Assembly (NCBI GenBank): GCA_964499935.1
Contig: CAZCMS010000001.1
Span: 674,452-738,451, forward strand
DNA: 64,000 nt
From: an uncultured Candidatus Saccharibacteria bacterium
GTDB lineage: Bacteria; Patescibacteriota; Saccharimonadia; Saccharimonadales; UBA4665
Direction of reading: 5' to 3'
Made by a program: the position numbers and the translations under genes. The notes beneath the pieces were generated by a model. That model ran no database searches. It was not told the origin of the DNA and was given only the letters and a program-made list of their open reading frames with translations. Positions 8,280 to 64,000 of the stretch are shown in pieces; position 1 is the first letter of the stretch, and each line of letters starts with the position of its first letter.

Positions 8280-9056
8280 ATGAAGAAGAAAATTATTATC
8301 GTCGCTGTTATTGCTGTACTTATTGGGGTAGGCGGAGCATTTTTCATAAAATCCAGAGGCATCAGCGAGGAGTCCTCGCAACAAAAATCATACACTCAAA
8401 GTAACAAAACTACAGACAAGAAACAGGCACCAGAATTTAATAAAACACAGTTTTCAACAACTGATCCGGCAAGTTTATGGGTAGTGGTTAATAAACAACA
8501 TCCACTCAATCCCCAAACATACAATCCAGATGATCTTGTGCTCCCTAATGTCTCTCTGCGCATTCCGGGTGCTGCACAAATGAAAATGCGCAAAGAGGCT
8601 GCCACAGCGATTGAGCAAATGTTCCAGGACGCAAAATCAGCTGGCCTTAATTTGCAGATTACCACTGCTCACAGAGGTTATGCCTACCAAAAAACGTTAT
8701 ACGATGGCTACGTCGCCGAACAAGGCAAAAGCGTCGCCGATACACAAAGCGCTCGTCCAGGCTACAGCGAACACCAGTCAGGCTGGGCAGCAGATATACG
8801 CCCAGAAAGCGGAAAGTGTTATCTAGAAGCGTGCTTTGGCGACATGGAAGAAGGGAAATGGCTTGCCGAAAATGCACATTCATATGGCTTCATTCTGCGC
8901 TATCCGCAAGGCAAGACAGATATCACTGGTTACACATACGAGCCTTGGCATTTTCGTTATGTAGGCAAAGAATTAGCTGCAGAAATGAAAAAGCAGAACA
9001 TCCTTACACTTGAAGAATTTTTCGGTCTTGGTCCAGCACCAGATTACGGGCAGTAG
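8280..9056 (+). CDS. D-alanyl-D-alanine carboxypeptidase, VanY/M15B family
   Basis: Motifs SEHQSGWAADI and EPWHFRYVG. Start moved to the internal ATG at 8280 (MKKKIIIVAV, signal/TM) because the track start at 8088 overlaps the CapA gene. Confidence 0.85.
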   Translation: MKKKIIIVAVIAVLIGVGGAFFIKSRGISEESSQQKSYTQSNKTTDKKQAPEFNKTQFSTTDPASLWVVVNKQHPLNPQTYNPDDLVLPNVSLRIPGAAQMKMRKEAATAIEQMFQDAKSAGLNLQITTAHRGYAYQKTLYDGYVAEQGKSVADTQSARPGYSEHQSGWAADIRPESGKCYLEACFGDMEEGKWLAENAHSYGFILRYPQGKTDITGYTYEPWHFRYVGKELAAEMKKQNILTLEEFFGLGPAPDYGQ

Positions 9057-9058
9057 AA

Positions 9059-9979
9059 ATGAAGTTTAAAAGCAATGCACCCAACCGCAAGTCCTATCGT
9101 AAAGTAACGAGCATTTTGATTTTGATGGTCCTGGTCGGATTTGGAGTATGGTTTTTTACTATACGCAGCAACAATACCTCAGCAGATAGCCAAAGCTCAT
9201 CAGCTAAATCAGACGTAACGACGCAAGAGGAGAAAAAGAAAGTACCTAAAACAGTTGTCGATACGGCTCTTGAGACAAAAATAAAAGATTGGGTCGCCAC
9301 TCGACCAGCCTCGTACTCTATAGAACTTACAGAACTTGAAAGAAGCGACAAGACCTTAGACTTGCGCACGGCCAGCTACAACGCGGACAAATCCATGGTA
9401 CCTGCTAGCACCTATAAAGTCCTACTCGCATATGCAGCACTTCACGAAATAGAGCAGGGCACGTATACACTTCAATCCCAAACGCGATCTGGGCAAACAA
9501 TAGAGACATGCCTTAACTTAATGATCGTAAAGTCAGATAACGATTGTGGCAGAGCGATAGGATTTTTATTAGGCTGGAAACACGTAAACGAGCTGCTCAA
9601 ACAGAAAGGACTTACTAGTACCGACTTCGATAACTACACCACAGGAAGCGATGAGCCTGTAGGAGAAAAATACACGACCGCTCATGATACGCAGATTATT
9701 TTAACTTCTCTATACTCAGGTAAATTATTGAATACCGTACACACAGACTTGCTACTAGGGCTTATGAAGAAGCAGATCTGGAAAGAGCGAATTGTTACTG
9801 GCATACCAGAAGGAGTCGTAGTTGCGAGTAAGCCGGGCTGGTTACCTGGAGTTCAAACCGATATAGCAATTGTATATGGCGCTCACAGCACTTATGCGCT
9901 CAGTATCCACTCTACAGAAAGCAGAGCAGCACCACTCGCTGAGTTATCTAAAATAATATACGACTACCTAAATAGCTAA
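9059..9979 (+). CDS. Class A beta-lactamase-fold serine hydrolase
   Basis: SxxK (STYK), SDN (KSDND) and KTG-like (KPG) motifs in the correct order, plus an N-terminal TM anchor. Confidence 0.7.
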   Translation: MKFKSNAPNRKSYRKVTSILILMVLVGFGVWFFTIRSNNTSADSQSSSAKSDVTTQEEKKKVPKTVVDTALETKIKDWVATRPASYSIELTELERSDKTLDLRTASYNADKSMVPASTYKVLLAYAALHEIEQGTYTLQSQTRSGQTIETCLNLMIVKSDNDCGRAIGFLLGWKHVNELLKQKGLTSTDFDNYTTGSDEPVGEKYTTAHDTQIILTSLYSGKLLNTVHTDLLLGLMKKQIWKERIVTGIPEGVVVASKPGWLPGVQTDIAIVYGAHSTYALSIHSTESRAAPLAELSKIIYDYLNS

Positions 9980-25676: not shown

Positions 25677-26666
25677 CTACTGTAATTCGGCTTTAAGTAT
25701 TCTTGCTAAAGCATTCATACTATTAAATTCATAGAATGCAAGGTATGCCAGCGCAAGTTTTCTGGCGTCAGTCTTACGAAGACTGACGCCTTTGCCAATA
25801 GAACTAATAAGGATAGCGTTTGCAAGCATCCGGCCAGTTCGCTTATTGCCGTCTTCAAAAGCCTGCAGGTATGGAACAAGAGTCAACGCTAGCTGTGCAC
25901 GAACAAAAGGGTTTTTTGTACGGCTGATAATAGAGAGTATTGTTTCCATATTTTCTCTCAACAGAAGGGGATTGGCGAGTGGCTCATAATTGCTTGCACT
26001 AATTCTAACGATCTTTTTTCGGATCCCGGCATCGATTCCGAGATTGCGACCAATAATCCTATGGAGCTCTTCAACGGAACTGAAAGCGATACGGTCTGTA
26101 AATAATTCATGGTTCTCAACAATGAATGCAATAGTATCTTTATGATTGAGTATCATCTGAGTCTCAAACTCAGTTCGATTTTTTGCCTTAATACCCTCAA
26201 CAAGAAGGAGTTGAGTATCGAGCAATGTGTAGGTGTTGCCTTCAAGCGCAGATGATTTCCATGAGAGCTCTATCGTCAGGTGTTCTAGTTCTTTTGCCGA
26301 CATTTTATTGCCTGTTGTTAGTTCGGTGACTTTGCTATAGTCACTGAAAAGATTATCAAGCTGCTGGCCTGATAATGAGTCCAGCCAAGTAATAAAGGCA
26401 TGACGGAATATACTTTGTGGACGATTCTCGTCTTCTAGAAGTTTATCGGCTATCATCGCGTGCATAACGGCTTCGTAGCTAGGACTATAGCTGGGACTAT
26501 TATTTGTGCCACTCTTACTAATAAGCCCAATGTCAGTAAGCCTCGCGAGTGCCCTCTGAATAGAGCGAATATCTACGTCTGGTAGATGCTTGCTGATTTC
26601 GGATGATGTCGTATCACCATTGAGTAAGTACAAGAGTACATACGAAGTTCTTTTGGTTATGTTCAT
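25677..26666 (-). CDS. Fic/Doc-family protein with N-terminal winged-helix domain, degenerate active site
   Basis: 329 aa with a wHTH N-terminus and inhibitory-type motif SSALEG. The active-site region QAFEDGNKRTGR is Doc-like (NKR) with Gln in place of the catalytic His. Confidence 0.7.
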   Translation of the reverse strand: MNITKRTSYVLLYLLNGDTTSSEISKHLPDVDIRSIQRALARLTDIGLISKSGTNNSPSYSPSYEAVMHAMIADKLLEDENRPQSIFRHAFITWLDSLSGQQLDNLFSDYSKVTELTTGNKMSAKELEHLTIELSWKSSALEGNTYTLLDTQLLLVEGIKAKNRTEFETQMILNHKDTIAFIVENHELFTDRIAFSSVEELHRIIGRNLGIDAGIRKKIVRISASNYEPLANPLLLRENMETILSIISRTKNPFVRAQLALTLVPYLQAFEDGNKRTGRMLANAILISSIGKGVSLRKTDARKLALAYLAFYEFNSMNALARILKAELQ

Positions 26667-30680: not shown

Positions 30681-30702
30681 ATTACGTCTATCGGTTTTCC
30701 AT

Positions 30703-30759
30703 TGCAGTTTCGTCGTTTACGACTCGTCAGTATAGCTTATATGTAATCTATAGACTGCT
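30703..30759 (-). ncRNA. Type III hammerhead ribozyme (copy 4, divergent helices)
   Basis: The minus strand reads GCAGU-C/UAUAG-12 nt-CUAUA/CUGACGA/GUCG-UAAA-CGAC/GAA/ACUGC. All core positions, G10.1-C11.1, A15.1-U16.1 and a GUC cleavage triplet are present. Confidence 0.8.
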
Positions 30760-30903
30760 AGGGAAGGGGTGTGATAGCCAAAAGGCTATTGATTCACACT
30801 CCCTCCCGGAGTTTTACTGGTTAACTCCACCAGAATCGATTTGCACGAATCGTGCCACCCTTCGATTAAAAGGTGTTACCTGAATTGACCGTAAACGATC
30901 AGA

Positions 30904-31146
30904 TCAGCCGTTCATCACCTTGGTGGTGACTTGAACAACCGAGTTGGGTTCGAGAACCTCATCCAGCTGGGCCTCACGACCGTTCACCTGGACCATCAGA
31001 CCTTGCTTGACCCTAACGTTCGCACAAGCGAGCGCATTAGCAACGGTCATGTCAGACGCATAGTCCAACTGATGGAGATCACCACCGAGCACAGCAACCT
31101 GCACCCAGCTCGGAGCTTCCTCGGCCACAACGATATCCGTAGACAT
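30904..31146 (-). CDS. Ubiquitin-like beta-grasp protein (ThiS/MoaD-like), C-terminal Gly
   Basis: 80 aa. VQVNGREAQLDEVLEPNSVVQV resembles ThiS/MoaD. Ends KVMNG-stop. GAGGAG RBS. Last gene of the E2-JAB-E1 operon. Confidence 0.65.
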   Translation of the reverse strand: MSTDIVVAEEAPSWVQVAVLGGDLHQLDYASDMTVANALACANVRVKQGLMVQVNGREAQLDEVLEPNSVVQVTTKVMNG

Positions 31147-31173
31147 ATCTACTTCACTACTCCTCTGTATTGA

Positions 31174-31842
31174 TCAGCGACTGAACAATTGTGCTTCTCG
31201 CACATGTACATCGATGTACGACTTGAGCTCCATATCTCGCGCAAATCGTGTCAACTGAGCAATCATGTGCCCAGCCAATACTACCGGCGGATGGATCACG
31301 GTACGCGCTGCGCACGGCAAAGGCGCACCCTCTCCATCAGGAAAAAGCCAATCCTTCTCGTAGGTGTCCACCGCATCCATATCCAGAGGGTTCAGCGCAA
31401 GCAATGTCATTTGCTCGCCACCAATCCGACCGTCAAGGTACAAAGGAACATCCGGGTTGAACTTGACTGACCCCCAAATATCGCATCGAGCCTGCATACT
31501 GTCTACACCGCTGATGACAACACCGCTGAGCGGGGTTTCTGCTGTCACAAATTCCTGGTGTGGAACAATGCTGCACTCAGACTCTCTGTAAGACTCCAGC
31601 ATTTCTGCTGCAGCCTCCACCTTGGGCCTACCAACATCGGTGCGGGAATAGATCAACTGCGCTGGCACATTGTGCGGCTCCACATAGTCCAAGTCCCACA
31701 AATGCAGCTCGCCACGAAGGCCGAGCTTCACCAACGGGAGCACCACAGCGCTACCGATTCCGCCGACACCAATCACATGGACAGGCCAGGTGAACTTACT
31801 CGGGTCGAAGATATCCGTCTGACCAGAATAGTCAGCAATCAC
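31174..31842 (-). CDS. ThiF/MoeB-type E1-like adenylating enzyme
   Basis: Rossmann motif IGVGGIGS, plus DLDYVEPHN and GVDSMQAR motifs. GTG start 7 nt after the JAB stop and behind GAGGTGA; the longer track ORF overlaps the JAB gene. Confidence 0.8.
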   Translation of the reverse strand: MIADYSGQTDIFDPSKFTWPVHVIGVGGIGSAVVLPLVKLGLRGELHLWDLDYVEPHNVPAQLIYSRTDVGRPKVEAAAEMLESYRESECSIVPHQEFVTAETPLSGVVISGVDSMQARCDIWGSVKFNPDVPLYLDGRIGGEQMTLLALNPLDMDAVDTYEKDWLFPDGEGAPLPCAARTVIHPPVVLAGHMIAQLTRFARDMELKSYIDVHVREAQLFSR

Positions 31843-31849
31843 AATTACT

Positions 31850-32479
31850 TCACCTCTCGATCTGAAGATTCGTAGGGTCGTATGGTACCGCATCAGCTGA
31901 AGCGCGAGGCTCCAAAGGAACGGTACGAAGTCGCCCAAAAAAACCCATCCCCTGGCTACGCACCTTGAGACGAATCTCGTCGGCGGTGCTGTCAAGCAAG
32001 CCTTCGTCGAACACTGTCACAATCTCGGGTATCACATCAATCTCGACCCGAAAAGGCTCGAAAATGTCCAAGCGACAGCGAAACTCGCCACGCTTGTTGA
32101 CAACCAGACTGATCAGCCAATCTCCAGGCCAGCGCTCAATATTCGCCGTATCGGTAGGGGAGAAATAGGACTCCATATTGACATGACTATGCCACTGGAA
32201 CTTGATAGATCCAGGATTCCCCGTACCGCTCAGCACCATCTCGTGAATGAAATGGGTCAGTGCATCATGGTCCACCTCAGCGTGTCCGGGCGAAGCCACT
32301 TGGTCCAAAATGAACACATCCTTCACACGGATGATGTCATCACGCACCTCCACCAAGCCAAATCCGTTGATCTCGGTCGGGCAATTGATGACGTATGCCA
32401 TCATCTTCTGCCAATCCTGAAACGAAATCTGCACTCGGGGGATACGAATCACTGCGGGGCCTGCCAAATTGACCGACAT
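31850..32479 (-). CDS. JAB/MPN (JAMM) metallopeptidase
   Basis: 209 aa with upstream Glu (TEINGFG) and the full JAMM motif HSHVNMESYFSPTD (HxHx7SxxD). Confidence 0.85.
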   Translation of the reverse strand: MSVNLAGPAVIRIPRVQISFQDWQKMMAYVINCPTEINGFGLVEVRDDIIRVKDVFILDQVASPGHAEVDHDALTHFIHEMVLSGTGNPGSIKFQWHSHVNMESYFSPTDTANIERWPGDWLISLVVNKRGEFRCRLDIFEPFRVEIDVIPEIVTVFDEGLLDSTADEIRLKVRSQGMGFFGRLRTVPLEPRASADAVPYDPTNLQIER

Positions 32480-33925
32480 CTACTTCATCTCCTCTTTATA
32501 CACGTGGAATGCTTGCAAAACATCTTTCTGATGCTCGGGGTTAACCGAACATAGACATTCAACTATCAAAGCCATCGCCTCAACATACTGCGCCTTGGCA
32601 AGGTGTTCATTGACGACTCTCTCCCGATTACCAAAACAAAACGCTCCGGTAGAGAGTCGATATACCGGGTAGCCACCTCTCCAGCTGCTCTTCACACCTG
32701 ACCGTAGCTCTTTTGCCGTTACCGTCAAGGTGTCGGCGCCAAGATCTACCTGCCAATCACCCAGGTCGTACGCTACCCCACTGTATTCATTGATGGCTCG
32801 CACGATGAGACGGATGCGATTGTTCACAACCTGCACTGCCAAAACTCCAGGCAGAGACATGATGCGATCAAATTCACCTCCAATATTCATCTCGAACAGT
32901 TGCTCGTTGGTTTCTTCGATAGCTCGCTCCAGGATCTGCTGCTGACTCGTCAAGTCATTTATCTCACCTTGCTGGCTTTTAACTTGCTCAGCGAGTGATC
33001 GCAAGACCTCGCGACCCCGCTTTACTGCCAAAACAACTTGCTTATGAGCCTCGATTCGATTCTTTTGCGCACTTTCTTGTCGCATTTCTACGTATACTGC
33101 ACGAGCACTATTAGGCGAGCTGGCATACGTCCGACTCACAGCAGGCCGCACCTCCGACGTTGAGTCTCCTCCCCCAACCAGAACATCTACTGGATTATGT
33201 CCATAGAAGTCAGGGGGCACCCACTCATCAGGTGGCGTCCACTCATCCCTTGGCTGGTGTTGCACGTCTCTTGCGCCTGGCTCCATCCTGGCTTGAAGTG
33301 GAGGATCCCAGCGAAGCAATAGCCCGCTCACAATCATGCTCAACCACCAAAAGGGGCCAAACATAAGCGTGACAACAAAGGGCCACACGTATCGCCAGGG
33401 CAAATCTGCCAATCGATGCTGCTGCTGTTCGTCCCGAAGATCAACCATATAGGCTATCAACGTTACTAGGCTAAAGAGCAGCCACATAACCAACAGTCCT
33501 GGATCAAAATACACAGCCGTTATAAAAGGCTTGAGACTGCTTTTTGTAAGGCCTAGCTTTAGTGGCTCACCTGTCTTGGCGACTTGCTTCAGCTGCCTAA
33601 GTTCCTTGGAATCTGAATCGAAAGGCTCCTCCTTATTGAGCTTGGCACTCAAATCCTGAAGACTCAAGACTTGTGTTGCCATCTGCATGCGTTTGCCACG
33701 TGTTTCTTCACTGACATCTTTTACATGCTCTTTGTTAGAGAGCATGATTTGAGCCAGTTTTTGGTTATTTCCCACGTTGTGGTTGGTGACCAAAACAATA
33801 CCGCCAGCGATAGCGATAGCAATCACACTCAATACGAGCGCAGCAATAAACATCAACGCTATCGATTCTCCGATATTGCGATCGATGAAGGTACCAAATC
33901 GCAACGGTGTCTCACGACGCGTCAT
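32480..33925 (-). CDS. Membrane-anchored coiled-coil protein with putative E2 (UBC-like) C-terminal domain
   Basis: 481 aa with TM helices near residues 20-45, 145-165 and 180-205, a Pro/Trp-rich linker, and a heptad-like region. The C-terminus has a four-strand pattern, then YPVYRLSTGAFCFGN (resembling HPN-x-G-x-IC-L of E2s) and a helix. Its stop directly abuts the JAB start. Confidence 0.45.
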   Translation of the reverse strand: MTRRETPLRFGTFIDRNIGESIALMFIAALVLSVIAIAIAGGIVLVTNHNVGNNQKLAQIMLSNKEHVKDVSEETRGKRMQMATQVLSLQDLSAKLNKEEPFDSDSKELRQLKQVAKTGEPLKLGLTKSSLKPFITAVYFDPGLLVMWLLFSLVTLIAYMVDLRDEQQQHRLADLPWRYVWPFVVTLMFGPFWWLSMIVSGLLLRWDPPLQARMEPGARDVQHQPRDEWTPPDEWVPPDFYGHNPVDVLVGGGDSTSEVRPAVSRTYASSPNSARAVYVEMRQESAQKNRIEAHKQVVLAVKRGREVLRSLAEQVKSQQGEINDLTSQQQILERAIEETNEQLFEMNIGGEFDRIMSLPGVLAVQVVNNRIRLIVRAINEYSGVAYDLGDWQVDLGADTLTVTAKELRSGVKSSWRGGYPVYRLSTGAFCFGNRERVVNEHLAKAQYVEAMALIVECLCSVNPEHQKDVLQAFHVYKEEMK

Positions 33926-33944
33926 CAGAATTCTCCCTTGTATA

Positions 33945-33994
33945 GTTTACTTCCAGTTTCAAATCTCGCTAAAGGTCTAAAACTGGAAGTAAAC
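33945..33994. repeat. Perfect 15-bp inverted repeat (cassette A 5' hairpin)
   Basis: GTTTACTTCCAGTTT (33945-33959) and AAACTGGAAGTAAAC (33980-33994), about 20 nt upstream of the operon start codon. Confidence 0.8.
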
Positions 33995-40530: not shown

Positions 40531-40665
40531 ATGAAGGGTAAAATGGACAAAATGAGTGGCAAAGCTAAAAAAACCGCAGGAAAAATCACCGATGATAAAG
40601 AGCTAGAAGCTAGAGGTAAAATGCAAGAAACCGCAGGAAAAGTTAAAGAAAAAACAGTTCGTTGA
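40531..40665 (+). CDS. CsbD-family stress protein (44 aa)
   Basis: Hand translation gives MKGKMDKMSGKAKKTAGKITDDKELEARGKMQETAGKVKEKTVR, behind RBS GGAGAAG. Typical CsbD repeat pattern. Below the ORF-track cutoff. Confidence 0.7.
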   Translation: MKGKMDKMSGKAKKTAGKITDDKELEARGKMQETAGKVKEKTVR

Positions 40666-40755
40666 CGAAAATTCAATTTTCTTGTATGATGTTACCTACG
40701 CAATGTAGATAGTAATCCGTTGCCGTATCTTGATAAGCAAAACATAGTTCGTATG

Positions 40756-40805
40756 AAGCGAGGGACAATGATAAAATCCACCGATTTTATAACTGTCCCT
40801 CGCTT
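40756..40805. repeat. Nested inverted repeat (cassette B 5' hairpin)
   Basis: 12-bp perfect arms AAGCGAGGGACA / TGTCCCTCGCTT enclosing a second stem ATAAAAT / ATTTTAT. Confidence 0.75.
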
Positions 40806-40864
40806 TGTGCAATACGTGCACACCAGCATTATGCTGAAAATCGAGGCAAAACCAAGGAATTGCT

Positions 40865-41251
40865 ATGCTGACAGTAGACAGACAGGAAACGGCAGAGGTA
40901 GCACATACGTGTGGCCTGACCGGTGACGCGAGTCTCATGATTCGCCTCGAGAGCGATGAGGTTCACAAGGAGCGACTGCAAGCTATGCTTCCGACGCTGC
41001 TGACCAAAGACGTTGCTCGACAGCTGAGTAGGGAAGTCTCGATCAATCGTCCTTGCGACCCGAGGAGGACGCCCAAAAATAGGAGTGGAGATCGATCAAT
41101 ATCGGTCAGTGTCGCTGGAGTTCAAGTCTCGCTACATATTGAAGTAACGACGCGGAAGCCTCAGGACTTCGAACCTTTCATTTGGGCAACGCGTGAGTTG
41201 TTGGTGCCGATTCTCGCGGGTCAGCTGACCGTATATAAGAAAATGCTCTAG
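40865..41251 (+). CDS. Hypothetical protein (GC-rich cassette B)
   Basis: 128-aa ORF with RBS AAGGAA 5 nt upstream. Higher G+C than the flanks. No recognisable family. Confidence 0.5.
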   Translation: MLTVDRQETAEVAHTCGLTGDASLMIRLESDEVHKERLQAMLPTLLTKDVARQLSREVSINRPCDPRRTPKNRSGDRSISVSVAGVQVSLHIEVTTRKPQDFEPFIWATRELLVPILAGQLTVYKKML

Positions 41252-41313
41252 TCAATAACAGAAGTAACCCAGTGGCGAAAGTGACTCGCAACAGCATATT
41301 CACGCTCAGCTCG

Positions 41314-41340
41314 CACCGTCTGGTGTCTGTTTTCGTGTTT
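41314..41340 (+). terminator. Short terminator-like hairpin plus GT-rich tract
   Basis: CACC-GTCT-GGTG followed by TCTGTTTTCGTGTTTT. Confidence 0.4.
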
Positions 41341-41354
41341 TGTTTTGCTTGTCA

Positions 41355-41414
41355 TTTTCGCTCTACAAATTAAATAGTTGTACTGATGAGTCCTCAGGAG
41401 GACGAAAGCGAAAG
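41355..41414 (+). ncRNA. Type III hammerhead ribozyme (copy 1)
   Basis: UUUUCGCU-C/UACAA-9 nt-UUGUA/CUGAUGA/GUCC-UCAGGA-GGAC/GAA/AGCGAAAG. An 8-bp helix III, 5-bp helix I and 4-bp helix II, with every invariant core base present. Confidence 0.85.
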
Positions 41415-55447: not shown

Positions 55448-55593
55448 GGAGTTAGTTAGGTTGTTGCTATTGATTATACATTCTTCTTACCATAATTAAT
55501 CATAAATTGACTAATATATAAATTAATACTATGATAAAATACCCTGTTGAATCTACATTCCAGTGGTGTACCTTGACAATCAGACAGTTATAG

Positions 55594-55653
55594 ACACGAG
55601 ATAAGATAGTGCTTCTTTAATTATTTTTTAAACAGCGCTACCTTATCTTGTGT
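55594..55653. repeat. Long inverted repeat (cassette C 5' hairpin)
   Basis: ACACGAGATAAG...CTTATCTTGTGT arms (one G-T pair) with partially paired extension. Related in sequence to 62157-62212. Confidence 0.7.
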
Positions 55654-55737
55654 CCTATGTGCAAAGAAAACATAGAACCGAAGTGTGCCCTAAGGGCATA
55701 CAACTGGCAAATAGTCAGAGATTAGGGGAAAGATAGT

Positions 55738-56205
55738 ATGCTGTCGTGTGATTGCCAGAAGGATAAGAGAGTTCACTACCCCAAGCCCAGTATGTGCGAC
55801 TCCCTGGCTCATGTCCTGTCAAAAGGTCACGTCATGGACGTGAAATACAGGAAGCGCATTGTATTGCTTCGTGGTAGCGAAGCCCCTTTTGCGGAGACCG
55901 TCGTCAACCTGAGTTATGCTGACGAGGGAATCTTCAAAGAACCCAGGTGGTATCTCGACCGTGACCCCAGCTTGACACCTGAAGGCGTGATCGCAGTTCG
56001 CGTGGAACGTGTTACAGAGATGAAGCTCTGCATTCCTTCTATGAGTAGGAATTTTGTAACGACCGTGCTGCCTGAGCCCAGTCGCGTATCACCTACGTTC
56101 TTCATCGATGGAACGTTGTGTCGCAATGGCGCTCGGCCTACCACCGTTCGAGATCGATACGGGAACGAGCACAAGTACGACCCCAAAAAGATGCGGGTCG
56201 TCTAG
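55738..56205 (+). CDS. Hypothetical protein (GC-rich cassette C)
   Basis: 155-aa ORF behind RBS AGGGGAAAG. GC-rich, with no recognisable family. Confidence 0.5.
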   Translation: MLSCDCQKDKRVHYPKPSMCDSLAHVLSKGHVMDVKYRKRIVLLRGSEAPFAETVVNLSYADEGIFKEPRWYLDRDPSLTPEGVIAVRVERVTEMKLCIPSMSRNFVTTVLPEPSRVSPTFFIDGTLCRNGARPTTVRDRYGNEHKYDPKKMRVV

Positions 56206-56290
56206 CTCTCCTAGCAGAGTTCGAGCAGCCCATTTCTCAAAATCACCAACCAGAAAGGATCCTCGAGCGAACTAGCAACAGACATAACTT

Positions 56291-56310
56291 CACGGTCTTT
56301 CCGTGTTTTC
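56291..56310 (+). terminator. Rho-independent terminator-like hairpin
   Basis: CACGG-TCTTT-CCGTG followed by TTTTC. Confidence 0.5.
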
Positions 56311-56341
56311 TTATACCCTACTGTACTGTCTGTTTGTCATG

Positions 56342-56399
56342 TTTCGCTCTGCAAATAAAAGAGTTGTACTGATGAGTCCTAGAGAGGACGAAAGCGATA
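56342..56399 (+). ncRNA. Type III hammerhead ribozyme (copy 2)
   Basis: UCGCU-C/UGCAA-9 nt-UUGUA/CUGAUGA/GUCC-UAGAGA-GGAC/GAA/AGCGA. Helix I has a G-U where copy 1 has A-U. Confidence 0.8.
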
Positions 56400-56461
56400 A
56401 CATATATCAAGACCAGACTATTCTTGCTGCTTATGCTATATTAAGTGTAGGTAACATTGGA

Positions 56462-57352
56462 ATGGGAAAGAAATATCTACTTTTTGTCGTAAGCTTTGTC
56501 GTGGCAACCACGGCTCTCATAACGACCCTTATACTCAACAGAGACAGTATTGCACTACTTAACCCCGAGGGCAAGATTGCAGGTCATCAGTATGATTTAC
56601 TCATGTTTGCTGTCGGACTCAGTCTTATAGTTATTATTCCTGTTTTTATACTCGCATTTTATGTTCTTTGGAAATACAACGAAAACAACAAAAAAGTTCA
56701 GTACACCCCCTTATGGGATCATAATCACAGACTAGAACTTCTCTGGTGGGGCGTTCCTATTGTATTAGTAGTGATTCTGGCAGTCATTACATTTAAAAGT
56801 TCACACGATCTCGACCCTTACAAAGCAATTCAGTCCAACAAAGAACCTGTCACTATTCAAGTGATTGCGCTCGAATGGAAATGGCTATTTATCTACCCTG
56901 AGCAAAAGATTGCTACCGTCAATCACATTACTATTCCCGAAAATCGACCAATCAACTTTAGAATCACCGCCGACGCACCAATGAACTCATTTTGGATACC
57001 AAAGCTTGGCGGACAAGTCTATGCTATGTCAGGTATGGAAACCAAACTACATCTTATGGCGGATAAACCCGGAACATACAAAGGCGTCGCTGCTAATCTA
57101 AGCGGAGAAGGGCATGCAGGCATGAAATTTACTGTAGACTCAGTATCTGATGGAGATTTTGGTACATGGATAAATACCGTTAGGCAAAGTCAGGATTTTC
57201 TAGACACAAAGACGTATGAAGAACTCGCCAAGAAGAGCAAAAACAACCCTAAAGCCTATTACTCCCAAGTCCAACCTACACTTTACAATGATATTTTAAA
57301 TAAATATATGCCGGCAAAATCCGAGCAAGAAGATAATCACAAAGGACACTAA
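56462..57352 (+). CDS. cyoA: Quinol oxidase subunit II
   Basis: Two N-terminal TM helices and a cupredoxin domain. The CuA Cys ligands are absent (ANLSGEGHAGMKF), as in quinol oxidases. Start moved to ATG 56462 because the longer track ORF runs through the ribozyme. Confidence 0.8.
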   Translation: MGKKYLLFVVSFVVATTALITTLILNRDSIALLNPEGKIAGHQYDLLMFAVGLSLIVIIPVFILAFYVLWKYNENNKKVQYTPLWDHNHRLELLWWGVPIVLVVILAVITFKSSHDLDPYKAIQSNKEPVTIQVIALEWKWLFIYPEQKIATVNHITIPENRPINFRITADAPMNSFWIPKLGGQVYAMSGMETKLHLMADKPGTYKGVAANLSGEGHAGMKFTVDSVSDGDFGTWINTVRQSQDFLDTKTYEELAKKSKNNPKAYYSQVQPTLYNDILNKYMPAKSEQEDNHKGH

Positions 57353-61168: not shown

Positions 61169-61225
61169 TTTCGCTTTCGTCCTCTCTAGGACTCATCAGT
61201 ACAACTAAATATTTGTAGAGCGAAT
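61169..61225 (-). ncRNA. Type III hammerhead ribozyme (copy 3)
   Basis: The minus strand reads AUUCGCU-C/UACAA-8 nt-UUGUA/CUGAUGA/GUCC-UAGAGA-GGAC/GAA/AGCGAA. It lies 13 nt from the cyoE stop on the opposite strand. Confidence 0.85.
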
Positions 61226-61243
61226 ATGACAAACAGACAAAAG

Positions 61244-61263
61244 AAAAACACACGGAAACCGTG
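61244..61263 (-). terminator. Rho-independent terminator-like hairpin
   Basis: Minus strand CACGG-TTT-CCGTG followed by TGTTTTT, downstream of the 61323-62078 gene. Confidence 0.5.
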
Positions 61264-61322
61264 CGAATTAGAGAAAGCCTAGCGTCATACTCGCAGTAAC
61301 GCATATTGCTAAACCCAAAGAG

Positions 61323-62078
61323 TCAGCGAACCGTGTATAGATAGGGCTGTACGCTATAAGGCGTCGTAACGATAGCTTCGCTATCGTTCCAGCCAACATA
61401 TTGCCTCAGTGCGCTCATCACCGTATCGTGATGTGCGATTCGATCGTGCTCTCGATTAGCGACAATCCACACGTCGCGACCAGAGATCCTCACAGAACGG
61501 ATAGCCCCTGTGTCCGCCAAAAGCAAGCGCAAGCGCACCCACCCAAGACCACCGGCCTCGTACTGCACATTCGGCGCAATCTCCGAAGCCATGTCGGGGC
61601 CGAGCTCCAGGGAAAACCGGTACTGTCTCGTGTAACCCGAGAACAACGAACCAGGGTAGTCGACCCAGCTGATACTCCGAGCGACCTCAGAGACCTCTGC
61701 CTTCGTATAACAGTACGACTGTGTCGGTTGCTGTGGCAGTCGATCCATAATCAAGAGCGCGTTGACGCGATCAGCGATCGCACGAAGATACTCAAGTGCT
61801 TCTTCGCACTCGAATACATCGTTCGCAATCGTTACGCGGAGCGCTTGTGCGTTGACTTCGATCGTGTCGACGTGAGCAAGCTCCTTGAAGAGCATACGAA
61901 CAAACATCAACGGCTGGCGATCCATGAGAGCCATATGAGCCGGATCCTGCATATCGACACGCCGAATCTTACACGGCGTACTGTCGGGCGGAAAAATTCC
62001 CTGAGGAACGAAAAAACTCACCTCATTTCTGGCAATCTCGATCAGAATCTTCACGGTATTATTGGTCATAACAGACAT
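61323..62078 (-). CDS. Hypothetical protein (GC-rich cassette D)
   Basis: ORF with start set at the internal ATG (MSVMTNN) behind GGAGAAAG. GC-rich, with no recognisable family. Confidence 0.5.
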   Translation of the reverse strand: MSVMTNNTVKILIEIARNEVSFFVPQGIFPPDSTPCKIRRVDMQDPAHMALMDRQPLMFVRMLFKELAHVDTIEVNAQALRVTIANDVFECEEALEYLRAIADRVNALLIMDRLPQQPTQSYCYTKAEVSEVARSISWVDYPGSLFSGYTRQYRFSLELGPDMASEIAPNVQYEAGGLGWVRLRLLLADTGAIRSVRISGRDVWIVANREHDRIAHHDTVMSALRQYVGWNDSEAIVTTPYSVQPYLYTVR

Positions 62079-62156
62079 ACTGTTCTTTCTCCAAACCTGT
62101 GGCACAATACCCTCCTACAACTGTAGGAGCTGTGTTTTTCTGTAACACATCACAAG

Positions 62157-62212
62157 ATAAGGTATCGTCACTTAAGTTAATTATCATAAAAACTTAAGCA
62201 GCCATACCTTAC
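62157..62212. repeat. Long inverted repeat (cassette D 5' hairpin)
   Basis: AAGGTAT / ATACCTT and CTTAAGT / ACTTAAG arms. On the minus strand, ACGAGGTAAGGTAT...GATACCTTATCTTGTG parallels cassette C. Confidence 0.7.
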
Positions 62213-62347
62213 CTCGTATTGGTGCTATCTGATTGTCAATATACATTCTTGGAGTTACCTCAACAAAGAATATGTATATTATATACTATAATAAATGTAA
62301 CAGCAAAAAAGCGTGTACTTTATATTCATAAGCGCTATAATATAGAT

Positions 62348-62599: not shown

Positions 62600-62816
62600 A
62601 ACTTGCATAAAATACCTATCTCTATCACCTGCGGTAAAAAAGATACGCATTCTATACGCTCAATATAGGGAAAAACGACAAGCAGGCACAAATACACAGA
62701 GAGAAAACACACCAGGATAGGCGAGAATCAAACATGTTATCATGCCTACTTGTTGCTTGCCCTAGCAACGAGCAACCTTTTGCACAAAGGTTAGCCAAAG
62801 CTAATACCAAGGACGA

Positions 62817-63290
62817 TCAGCTCAAGCTGATGGCGATTCCCTGACCACCCAGGAGGAGACGCTGGTAAAGACCTTGCTGCGACTCATCGCCACGCGTCGT
62901 GATACCCGTAGTCGACTTGACGTCTTCGCCAACCTGCTGCAGAAGCCCCATATAGAGCCACGCCTGCACCACGAAATAGGCATTCTCGAAAGGGATAGCG
63001 AACTCGCCGATAGAGACATATACCTCCGCGACAAACTCGGTCTCCATAATGACCAACGAGAAATCACGCGAATCAGACACAGACTGATCGGACATGTTCG
63101 GGGAGCAGTCATGCGAAATGCAGTGCAATTCGTTGGCGAGCCCCTCAGCAATCTCGGAGAAAACCTCCTCCAAACGATCCTTCGTAAACCGACCCGAGGC
63201 CGACGTAGACAGCTTGATCGAAACCTCACCACCATGACCAAACTTGATGGTGGTCTCCGCGAAAACCTGCTCCGGTACCGAAGTAGACAT
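62817..63290 (-). CDS. Hypothetical acidic protein (GC-rich cassette E)
   Basis: 157-aa ORF behind the strong RBS GGGAGGAGAG. Competing frames on both strands lack an RBS. Confidence 0.55.
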   Translation of the reverse strand: MSTSVPEQVFAETTIKFGHGGEVSIKLSTSASGRFTKDRLEEVFSEIAEGLANELHCISHDCSPNMSDQSVSDSRDFSLVIMETEFVAEVYVSIGEFAIPFENAYFVVQAWLYMGLLQQVGEDVKSTTGITTRGDESQQGLYQRLLLGGQGIAISLS

Positions 63291-63372
63291 ATGTTCTCTC
63301 CTCCCTATAAGGGAATCGTTTCTCCATTACCACCCAAATGGGCGCCAGATTCTTGTGTTTTTCGTACTGCTA

Positions 63373-63427
63373 CACGAGAATGAGGAAAGAACCCAGAAAA
63401 CTTGCTGAATTTTTTCCTCGTCTCGTG
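63373..63427. repeat. Long inverted repeat (cassette E 5' hairpin)
   Basis: CACGAGAATGAGGAAA / TTTCCTCGTCTCGTG arms with a loop of about 24 nt, 83 nt upstream of the 63290 start. Confidence 0.7.
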
Positions 63428-63781
63428 CAGGCTATTATATACCTGCTTGTCAAAATACGTCTTTGGAGTTGCCTCAACAAAGATTAAACATAATTTTATA
63501 ACTTTAATAGTGTTGTGTCAAGTATATTTTAGGGATCTCTTGAGGCTCTTGCTCTCTTTCGGTTTTGTTATATATAGCACCTAAACATTGCATTATTAAC
63601 ATTTTTATGATATAATTTATGCACTTTGTAGAGTGTTGTGGCATTGGCTCATTACTCCGAAGTACATTAACAGATCTCTGTCTATTGAGTTAGGCTACCG
63701 TTTTGGCCGGCAACATATATATGATCGAACTTTTCATTGTATGTATTTTGCCCGCCAAAACAACAAAGGAGCAGTGGCGAC

Positions 63782-64000
63782 ATGGTAACGACCGATACGA
63801 CCCGTCTGGGTGAGTTCGACACCAAGCAGGTAGCGGATTTGCGCACCCAGCGTCGTCGAAGCATCGACAATGCTGCACGCACCATCACCAGCAATATCCC
63901 GGGAGTCATTGGGGTATGCCTCTTCGGCGATCACGTTCGAGACGTCGACAAGGACACCAGCACCATCGACCTGGTCGTCATCAGCGATGCGATTCACGAG
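63782..64000 (+). CDS. Nucleotidyltransferase-domain protein (MNT-like), N-terminal part, runs off the window
   Basis: ATG behind AAGGAG. Translation MVTTDTTRLGEF...GVIGVCLFGDHVRDVDKDTSTIDLVVISD fits the minimal NTase pattern G..lFGS.aRG....SDiDl.v. Absent from the ORF track because no stop lies in the window. Confidence 0.6.
   Translation, partial: MVTTDTTRLGEFDTKQVADLRTQRRRSIDNAARTITSNIPGVIGVCLFGDHVRDVDKDTSTIDLVVISDAIHE

Follow-up and report, generated by a model that had tools for sequence, protein, structure and literature searches.

The segment from 55507 to 56399 (+) of the 64,000-nucleotide (nt) stretch analyzed here (the window), which comes from an uncultured Candidatus Saccharibacteria bacterium, lies just 5' of cyoA and comprises its own promoter, a structured leader, an orphan gene and, at its end, a hammerhead ribozyme. 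Judged by comparison with related loci, this segment, which we call cassette C, is a complete member of a family of modular cassettes that are exchanged horizontally and common among Saccharibacteria (TM7). The window as a whole has four hammerheads and six or more cassettes, labeled A to F.

Cassette C opens with a promoter (TTGACT, a 17-nt spacer and TATGAT; 55507-55535, +) that scored 10/12 in a promoter scan and is homologous to the promoters of two related loci, L074 and L075. Downstream of it lies the left inverted-repeat box (IR-L), TTGACAATCAGAC (55573-55585, +), which is supported by pairing across 34 distinct box combinations and is the reverse complement of a right box (IR-R) near the other end of the cassette. 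The TTGACA inside IR-L was considered as the -35 element of the cassette and rejected, as it has no -10 element at the right distance and the proper promoter lies 38 to 66 nt upstream. The 5' untranslated region then folds into a long hairpin (55594-55653, +) whose base, GAGATAAGA/CCTTATCTT, is conserved and whose apex varies; its 60 nt have a predicted free energy of -25.7 kcal/mol, with z = -8.3 relative to dinucleotide shuffles. The cargo, an open reading frame (ORF) of 155 amino acids (55738-56205, +), is preceded by AGGGGA and followed by a small stem-loop with a 5-bp GC stem and a T-run (56291-56305, +), which was picked up by a terminator scan and by folding and may be a weak terminator or a 3' protective hairpin. 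IR-R, GTCTGTTTGTCAT (56328-56340, +), assigned by box alignment, leads into a type III hammerhead (56342-56399, +) for which Rfam alignment, folding and covariation predict cleavage after C56349. A previous sequence-only reading of this region had already placed the hairpin, the 155-residue gene, the terminator hairpin, the hammerhead and the cyoA start correctly. Its view of a cassette was also right and extends well beyond the window, to related loci with a shared layout, but it had missed the promoter, both boxes, the mobility and the replaceable cargo.

The cargo ORF has a GC content of ~53%, compared to ~35 to 42% in its flanks. Its product has no match in Pfam, PADLOC or PHROG and no relative but itself among 5.8 billion clustered proteins. 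An exhaustive HMMER search of 1.8 billion representatives returned four sequences besides the protein itself, which we rejected as repeat artifacts: each is a long, repetitive protein whose Pfam matches are junk, and the sole pair that was aligned (with P0124) gave E values of ~3e-4 per repeat. The orphan status of the protein therefore stands. A structure prediction from the single sequence was unusable (predicted local distance difference test score [pLDDT], 31; predicted template modeling score [pTM], 0.19).

The hammerhead aligns with positions 1 to 54 of the 54 positions of Rfam model RF00008 at 37.2 bits (E = 2e-4). This falls below the gathering score of 48.5, and the other three window copies score 44.4, 30.8 and 24.1 bits. 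The cassette hammerheads share the full core and three covarying helices with RF00008 and differ from it in score, at 24 to 44 bits versus 48.5; related copies in 12 scanned loci likewise fall short of the gathering score. At gathering thresholds Rfam yields only a tRNA in the window; the hammerheads emerge only with an E-value threshold, and Rfam-based annotation consequently misses them. The catalytic core is intact, with CUGAUGA at 56369-56375, GAAA at 56390-56393, the U56348-A56393 pair (A15.1-U16.1) and C56349 (C17), and these core columns are invariant across 42 distinct relatives. A search with the core pattern found four sites in the window (30702-30760, -; 41358-41411, +; 56342-56399, +; 61171-61223, -) against 0.06 expected. 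The minimum free energy (MFE) fold of each of the four is the canonical three-way junction, with stem III open.

Covariation points in the same direction. Across the 42 relatives, 96.8% of the cells in predicted pairs are standard, compared to at most 44% when partners are slid, and compensatory double changes occur in six of the seven stem I pairs. The first search pattern fixed stem II, and a metagenome set was selected only on IR-R and the 5' half of the ribozyme. In that set stem II covaries (GUCC/GGAC, GUUC/GAAC and GUCU/AGAC, plus one long insertion), and the GAAA box comes next everywhere except in two false positives and at one locus whose contig ends before it. Stem III is compensated in the related locus L078 (TCGTT/AACGA). 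The copies make up a subfamily specific to their lineage, in which stem II hardly varies (GUCC-AAAA-GGAC) and a fixed box of 13 nt precedes the ribozyme by 2 to 3 nt. These patterns support 56342-56399 as a real type III hammerhead in sequence and structure. One variant stands apart: in the third array cassette of locus L064 (-), the hammerhead at ~2240-2300 in minus-strand coordinates carries U instead of C3 (UUGAUGAG), and its stem II is wholly different yet compensated (GCUG/CAGC). This copy would either be inactive or need a matching G8 change, which is absent.

The ribozyme is concealed by the annotation of its neighbor. The ORF called at 56303-57352 (+; 349 residues) reads through the ribozyme (...KRVVLMSPREDES...), as had been pointed out from the sequence. 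With this ORF as query we retrieved 5184 CyoA homologues, of which the best-named relatives belong to Patescibacteria; the close ones are 296 to 300 residues long, start with MGKKYL or MGKRYL, and cover no more than 85% of the query. Since the close homologues start at MGKKYL, we regard the 53-residue extension as a gene-calling artifact. Homologue N termini thus place the true coding sequence (CDS) of cyoA at 56462-57352 (+; 296 residues, ATG at 56462, starting MGKKYL) and mark 56303-56461 (+), which passes through IR-R and the hammerhead, as spurious. The proposed start near MGKKYL is borne out, and the upstream 53 residues are not conserved among the listed homologues. The sole extended homologue, P0001, is 99% identical, 337 residues long and starts with MFRSANKRVVLMSPREDES; it is the same overcall in a public assembly, so that the predicted burial of the ribozyme in a CDS has already happened.

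One proposal did not survive. TTGCTG..TATATT had been put forward as a promoter, but its spacer is only 7 nt and the two motifs are not a -35/-10 pair. A more plausible cyoA promoter element is the probable extended -10, TGCTATATT (56434-56442, +), read from the sequence 3' of the ribozyme and conserved in L074, a locus that lacks the hammerhead body and keeps the cyoA upstream promoter region. We assign the hammerhead to the upstream cassette and not to cyoA, because similarity between cassettes in unrelated flanks ends at the last hammerhead base. In a crude ORF-based count, the nearest gene downstream of a hammerhead was convergent in 34 cases and codirectional in 23.

When one genome per species was scanned with a pattern for the stem II/III half of the hammerhead, we found it at 73 genome loci, nearly all in metagenome-assembled genomes (MAGs) of Saccharibacteria (TM7) and often at several loci per genome; 29 metagenome loci carry it as well. 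The loci share a layout: a promoter, a small hairpin, the 13-nt box TTGACAAGCAGAC (IR-L), the long hairpin, one GC-rich ORF of 85 to 306 residues, a small stem-loop, the reverse complement of the box, GTCTGCTTGTCAT (IR-R), and, 2 to 3 nt later, the hammerhead. In most cassettes a near-consensus sigma-70 promoter (ATTGACA-N17-TAtaAT, often TGnTATAAT) and the long hairpin, with base CACAAGRTGAG/CTCATCTTGTG and variable apex, stand at equivalent positions. The small 3' stem-loop, tcacggNNNccgtg, with a T/C-rich tail (ttttc), is kept in many. Two short contigs of 1.0 to 1.4 kb in a "Spirochaetia" MAG, JARKOY010000047.1 and JARKOY010000058.1 (L061 and L069), also carry typical Saccharibacteria-type cassettes and are probably misbinned.

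The flanking elements recur with very different cargo. When the longest ORF of each of 47 cassettes was clustered by protein, 30 clusters unrelated to one another resulted, the largest of which spans eight cassettes (L035, L045, L048, L049, L051, L052, L061 and L068). Two of its members, from L049 and L048, match the Pfam family PF25186, Tad4 (E = 4e-32 and 6.5e-24, respectively). Tad4 is a phage inhibitor of type I Thoeris, and its homologues here sit in chromosomal cassettes of an episymbiotic bacterium. Among the other cargo products are small membrane proteins, a DUF2807 adhesin-head-like protein and numerous orphans, and four PHROG families were matched.

Cassettes with homologous cargo occur in flanks that are dissimilar even at the protein level; L045 and L049, for instance, are 85% identical over 700 nt. 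In pairwise comparisons the -35 box marks the onset of similarity and the final base of the hammerhead (GAAAGCGAA) its limit, implying that the exchanged unit runs from promoter to ribozyme. Cassettes also form head-to-tail arrays (three in L064, two in L037) in which 77 to 102 nt separate a hammerhead end from the next IR-L, and ~15 to 30 nt separate a hammerhead from the next promoter. Their neighbors include cyoABCDE, an LPG-synthase-like gene, a superoxide dismutase gene and ABC transporter genes, with no prophage or integrase context. Scans of 2.9 million viral contigs gave one, one and zero matches, leaving a phage origin unsupported.

Three syntenic relatives (L074, L075/L076 and L078), recovered through CyoA and the protein of cassette D, allowed us to compare the slots that flank the cyo operon. 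In L074, whose CyoA is 83% identical, a cassette follows the equivalent LPG-synthase-like gene; its promoter, IR-L, long hairpin, 3' stem-loop and IR-R are homologous to those of cassette C, its ORF of 122 residues is unrelated, and its hammerhead is missing from stem I onward. The breakpoints of this cargo replacement fall internal to the boxes, on the 3' side of the hairpin and the 5' side of the 3' stem-loop. We rejected the idea that the L074 cassette is truncated exactly at the cleavage site, because homology to the window continues ~6 nt past it. In L075 and L076 (CyoA, 80%), what remains is the promoter and, of the hammerhead, a dead 3' half. The idea that they show an empty "docking site" (promoter plus hammerhead) was set aside: compared by eye with L074, they seem to have lost the stretch that starts just 5' of IR-L and extends to the CUGAUGAG box. 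A trehalose synthase/phosphatase gene (728 residues in L074) lies between the L074 cassette and cyoA. When the window (55448-56461) was compared to L074 (4797-8000) and L075 (5524-8000), this trehalose-6-phosphate synthase/phosphatase fusion of 720 to 728 residues appeared between slot and cyoA throughout L074 to L076, and it is absent from that place in the window and in L078.

The most distant relative, L078 (CyoA, 66%), has a cassette with an intact hammerhead directly 5' of cyoA and a third unrelated ORF, of 146 residues. The slot 5' of cyoA thus holds unrelated ORFs of 155, 122 and 146 residues in the window, L074 and L078, between homologous flanks. Beyond cyoE, L078 carries three tandem cassettes, two of them orthologous to window cassettes D (53%, with hammerhead) and E (37%, without). 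This comparison implies that the slots are old, that the cargo of slot C has been replaced repeatedly, that cassettes have been gained and lost, and that cargo proteins evolve faster than CyoA. Cassette E and its L078 ortholog (8835-9627, +) both have IR-L, IR-R and a similar tail (ttttccct.t...atagaa) and no hammerhead, so a ribozyme-less state can last across a split this deep.

The two end boxes covary. Over the 34 distinct IR-L/IR-R combinations, 95.6% of cells are paired and double changes occur at 6 of 12 pairs, a result that none of 500 shuffles reached. These double changes include CAGGT/ACCTG, CAAAA/TTTTG in cassette B and AATCAGG/CCTGATT in L046. One-sided differences, read on the sense strand, gave 21 G.U and 9 A.C mismatches (p ~0.04, indicative only, as the loci are related). 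Upon folding of 47 whole cassette transcripts (500 to 1100 nt), the IR-L:IR-R helix was part of the MFE structure in 32, with pairing probabilities of 0.895 in cassette C and 0.859 in cassette D. In the independent metagenome set, IR-L is present 450 to 1100 nt upstream in 26 of 30 loci. Together, these observations support a predicted pairing of the two mRNA ends.

The leader of one cassette corresponds to a named RNA motif. L052 (991-1069, +) matches the Rfam motif RAGATH-10 (RF03147) at 56.1 bits, compared to a threshold of 41.2, and was alone in reaching the gathering threshold among 12 loci scanned; the window cassettes gave no match even at E <= 10. In L052 the outer helix of the motif joins CCUCAUCUUG, the 3' arm of the long hairpin, with GGAUGAGGAG beside the start codon, which suggests two alternative predicted folds, the hairpin or a sequestered ribosome-binding site. 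In cassette C, CCUUAUCUU is complementary to GAGAUUAGG in a comparable way, and the longer 3' arm and the Shine-Dalgarno region of this cassette form a predicted duplex of -10.5 kcal/mol. We take the alternative-fold idea for the RAGATH-10-type subset as a lead rather than a result.

The remaining window cassettes vary this scheme. Cassette B (40662-41413, +; placed by Rfam and box comparison) has a promoter (TTGACG-17-TATGAT, 40662-40690), IR-L TTGATAAGCAAAA (40730-40742), a hairpin (40750-40816), an ORF of 128 residues (40865-41251), IR-R TTTTGCTTGTCAT (41343-41355) and a hammerhead (41358-41411). Its -35 element (TTGACG, 40662-40667) overlaps the stop codon of the small gene upstream with no spacer, and by eye that gene looks CsbD-like. 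Cassette D (61169-62260, -; Rfam, boxes and folding) converges on the 3' end of cyoE and comprises IR-L (62227-62239), a hairpin (62146-62215), an ORF of 251 residues (61323-62078), a second hairpin (~61250-61265), IR-R (61226-61238) and a hammerhead (61171-61223). Cassette E (62675-63453, -), the copy that lacks a hammerhead, has IR-L at 63441-63453, an ORF of 157 residues at 62817-63290 and IR-R at 62675-62687. Cassette F (63588-64000, +), recognized by eye, is cut by the window end, which falls inside its ORF; it shows a promoter-like TTGCAT-17-TATAAT, a leader hairpin, a divergent box, a further hairpin (63703-63758) and an ORF from 63783. This cargo (63783-64000, +) begins MVTTDTTRLGEFDTKQVADLRTQRRRSIDNAARTITSNIPGVIGVCLFGDHVRDVDKDTSTIDLVVISD and by eye looks like a minimal nucleotidyltransferase, as in HEPN-MNT toxin-antitoxin pairs.

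Cassette A (30702-33992, -), found by Rfam and Pfam/PADLOC scans, is a multigene unit with a different hammerhead subtype. It consists of a hairpin (33945-33992), an ORF of 481 residues with no Pfam match, genes for Prok-JAB-like, ThiF/E1-like (weak PADLOC E1-E2/BilD) and 80-residue ubiquitin-like (Ubl) proteins, and a hammerhead (30702-30760, 44.4 bits; CUGACGAG) with stem II GUCG/CGAC. From its gene content, cassette A resembles a Bil-type ubiquitin-like conjugation defense operon packed as a ribozyme-ended cassette. Elsewhere in the window, a perfect 11-bp GC-rich hairpin at 25764-25790 (+; GGCGTCAGTCT TACGA AGACTGACGCC) reached 33 bits with the weev_FSE frameshift model, short of the threshold, and is probably just a terminator-like stem.

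Given these results, we favor, as the probable though far from certain explanation, a self-processing, insulated and autonomous accessory-gene cassette with paired mRNA ends. Transcription from the cassette promoter would pass through the weak 3' hairpin into the hammerhead, which, judging from its intact core and covariation, would cleave after C56349. Cleavage would fix the 3' end of the cassette mRNA 9 nt past IR-R, with a 2',3'-cyclic phosphate there, and, since it falls after C17, would leave nearly the whole ribozyme on the downstream fragment. Read-through RNA would in this way be cut from what lies downstream, namely the cyo operon with its own promoter or, at cassette D, the convergent cyoE. 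IR-L and IR-R would pair in the RNA, as their covariation and G.U bias suggest, and close the mRNA into a stem-bounded loop, while the long hairpin, as part of the leader, would probably control stability or ribosome access. The most likely role of the ribozyme is thus to set the 3' end of the cassette mRNA and to uncouple the cassette from neighboring genes. Cassettes may move by homologous exchange through conserved flanks, by a recombinase or by an RNA route.

Several observations weigh against this explanation. Self-cleavage is deduced from the intact core and covariation, the window copies score below the Rfam gathering threshold, their stem I and stem II loops differ from the family majority, and their tertiary contacts are a prediction. 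The small hairpin and T-run may end most transcripts before IR-R and the hammerhead. Some cassettes have no ribozyme (cassette E, its L078 ortholog and the L074 copy in slot C), which makes the ribozyme dispensable, at least for cassette retention. Regarding the boxes, a perfect 12-nt inverted repeat is predicted to pair whatever its function; their high sequence conservation fits protein recognition, of DNA or RNA, equally well; and the G.U bias is modest and drawn from phylogenetically related loci. Across the family, predicted pairing between the 3' arm of the long hairpin and the ribosome-binding region is no better than in shuffles (mean of -11.2 versus -10.9 kcal/mol).

The alternative that survives best, although we think it unlikely, is one in which the inverted boxes and the long hairpin have their role at the DNA level. 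As a nonautonomous mobile element, the cassette would be moved in trans by a recombinase or transposase that recognizes TTGACAAGCAGAC, the hairpin or both, like a mobile insertion cassette or an integron cassette, and the hammerhead would be an accessory module for transcript processing. Homologous cargo in unrelated flanks, head-to-tail arrays, diverse cargo of non-host composition as in integron arrays, boxes that are nearly invariant across distant genomes, and a hairpin with conserved base and variable apex like attC sites would all fit such an element. The exchanged unit, however, reaches ~70 nt to the left of IR-L, taking in the promoter, and ~60 nt to the right of IR-R, including the whole hammerhead, so the boxes are not terminal. 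At the few junctions inspected, the two pairs of L045 and L049, no target-site duplication is evident, with no empty site for comparison, and the hairpin base is unlike attC core sites. Sense-strand mismatches favor G.U over A.C, the window/L074 breakpoints fall within the cassette at the places given above, and no recombinase turned up, though no systematic search was made.

More doubtful still is a broader reading in which these cassettes form a ribozyme-delimited system, an integron-like pool of accessory, defense and anti-defense genes shared among Saccharibacteria, with the ribozyme and boxes taking part in mobility or circularization. If true, it would define a previously unrecognized mobile unit that begins exactly at its own -35 box and ends with the final base of the hammerhead, and would give the ribozyme a role beyond mRNA processing, for example in freeing unit-length RNA between successive hammerheads of an array.

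An improbable alternative is retrozyme-like propagation, in which successive hammerheads release a unit-length RNA (hammerhead body, next promoter and cassette, with 5'-OH and 2',3'-cyclic phosphate ends) that is circularized and copied back into DNA. Type III is the topology typical of circular RNA replicons and retrozymes, and it is that of the cassette hammerheads. The bounds from -35 box to hammerhead end match a circular permutation of the RNA between two hammerheads, and in arrays a hammerhead and the next promoter are very close. Most copies, however, cassette C included, are solitary with a single hammerhead, and no reverse transcriptase was seen beside cassettes. At prophage hammerhead clusters, moreover, no circular or spliced products were found (PMC3088659).

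Finally, the idea that the hammerhead processes a cyoA leader, or that the 349-residue ORF is true CyoA with an extension, draws on the 62 nt between hammerhead and cyoA ATG, the similar arrangement in distant L078 and an ORF through the ribozyme that one public gene call uses, but is scarcely credible when the listed CyoA homologues other than the near-identical, overcalled P0001 have no extension, L074 to L076 have the equivalent cyoA promoter region without an adjacent hammerhead, and elsewhere the hammerhead follows unrelated cassettes and more often faces a convergent gene.

The nearest precedents for these cassettes are the hammerhead-flanked variable genes of prophages and the Rfam motif RAGATH-10. 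Perreault et al. (2011; PMC3088659) described hundreds of bacterial hammerheads, many near prophage integrases and often flanking single genes whose identity varies, among them the anti-restriction gene ardA of Agrobacterium tumefaciens, and proposed that long transcripts are cut to gene-length mRNAs. In the cassettes, too, hammerheads stand beside single variable genes (30 clusters from 47 cassettes), and where a prophage unit carries an anti-restriction gene, the largest cargo cluster here matches the anti-Thoeris family Tad4. Unlike the prophage units, the cassettes are chromosomal, lie among housekeeping genes and are almost absent from viral contigs, and each brings its own promoter along with a conserved structured leader and a covarying pair of end boxes. 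The name RAGATH-10 was defined in PMC11061315, and we found no link of this motif to a promoter-to-hammerhead cassette in the papers searched.

Integron cassettes offer a parallel in organization: they too carry one or, rarely, several genes with diverse, often orphan cargo and lineage-specific conserved flanks, they form head-to-tail arrays of non-host composition, and they are gained, lost and replaced at fixed slots. An integron cassette is a promoterless ORF driven by a platform promoter next to intI and attI, and its attC site has RYYYAAC and GTTRRRY core sites at the 3' end of the cassette. The cassettes described here instead have their own promoter, occur mostly as dispersed single copies and end in a ribozyme. 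They have no attC core; their sole long hairpin, with the base given above, lies 5' of the ORF. No integrase or attI turned up, although intI was not searched for. In contrast to a transposon bounded by terminal inverted repeats, such as a miniature inverted-repeat transposable element or a mobile insertion cassette, their inverted repeats are not at the termini of the unit. A retrozyme has hammerheads at both ends and yields a circular RNA; cassette C has a single hammerhead, with tandem arrays elsewhere. Like phage morons, the cassettes are autonomous transcription units of deviant GC content between unrelated genes; unlike morons, they lie outside prophages and have a conserved leader, end boxes and a ribozyme. 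A full-text literature search pairing hammerhead with Saccharibacteria, Patescibacteria, TM7 or Nanosynbacter gave nothing relevant among the matches listed, and the one paper containing both "hammerhead" and "Saccharibacteria" was unrelated. What is new here is the saccharibacterial, non-prophage setting, a defined unit that includes a promoter and a structured leader of its own, the covarying end boxes, the promoter-to-ribozyme segment as the exchanged unit, and cargo replacement at conserved slots.

The role of bacterial hammerheads has been unclear since the 2011 catalogue, and this cassette family provides a defined, repeated and comparable setting for them, in which the flanks are the same, the cargoes are many, and some copies have the ribozyme while others lack it. 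The phylum Saccharibacteria is reported to have recently become genetically tractable (PMC10633639). The family also places RAGATH-10, an Rfam motif of unknown function, inside a defined transcription unit, and it exposes a systematic annotation problem in which ribozymes score below threshold and gene callers extend neighboring ORFs through them. For these episymbiotic bacteria with reduced genomes, the cassettes constitute a pool of fast-evolving orphan, defense and anti-defense genes. With a strong promoter, a structured leader and a predicted self-cleaving insulator, each cassette would be a natural analogue of synthetic ribozyme insulators.

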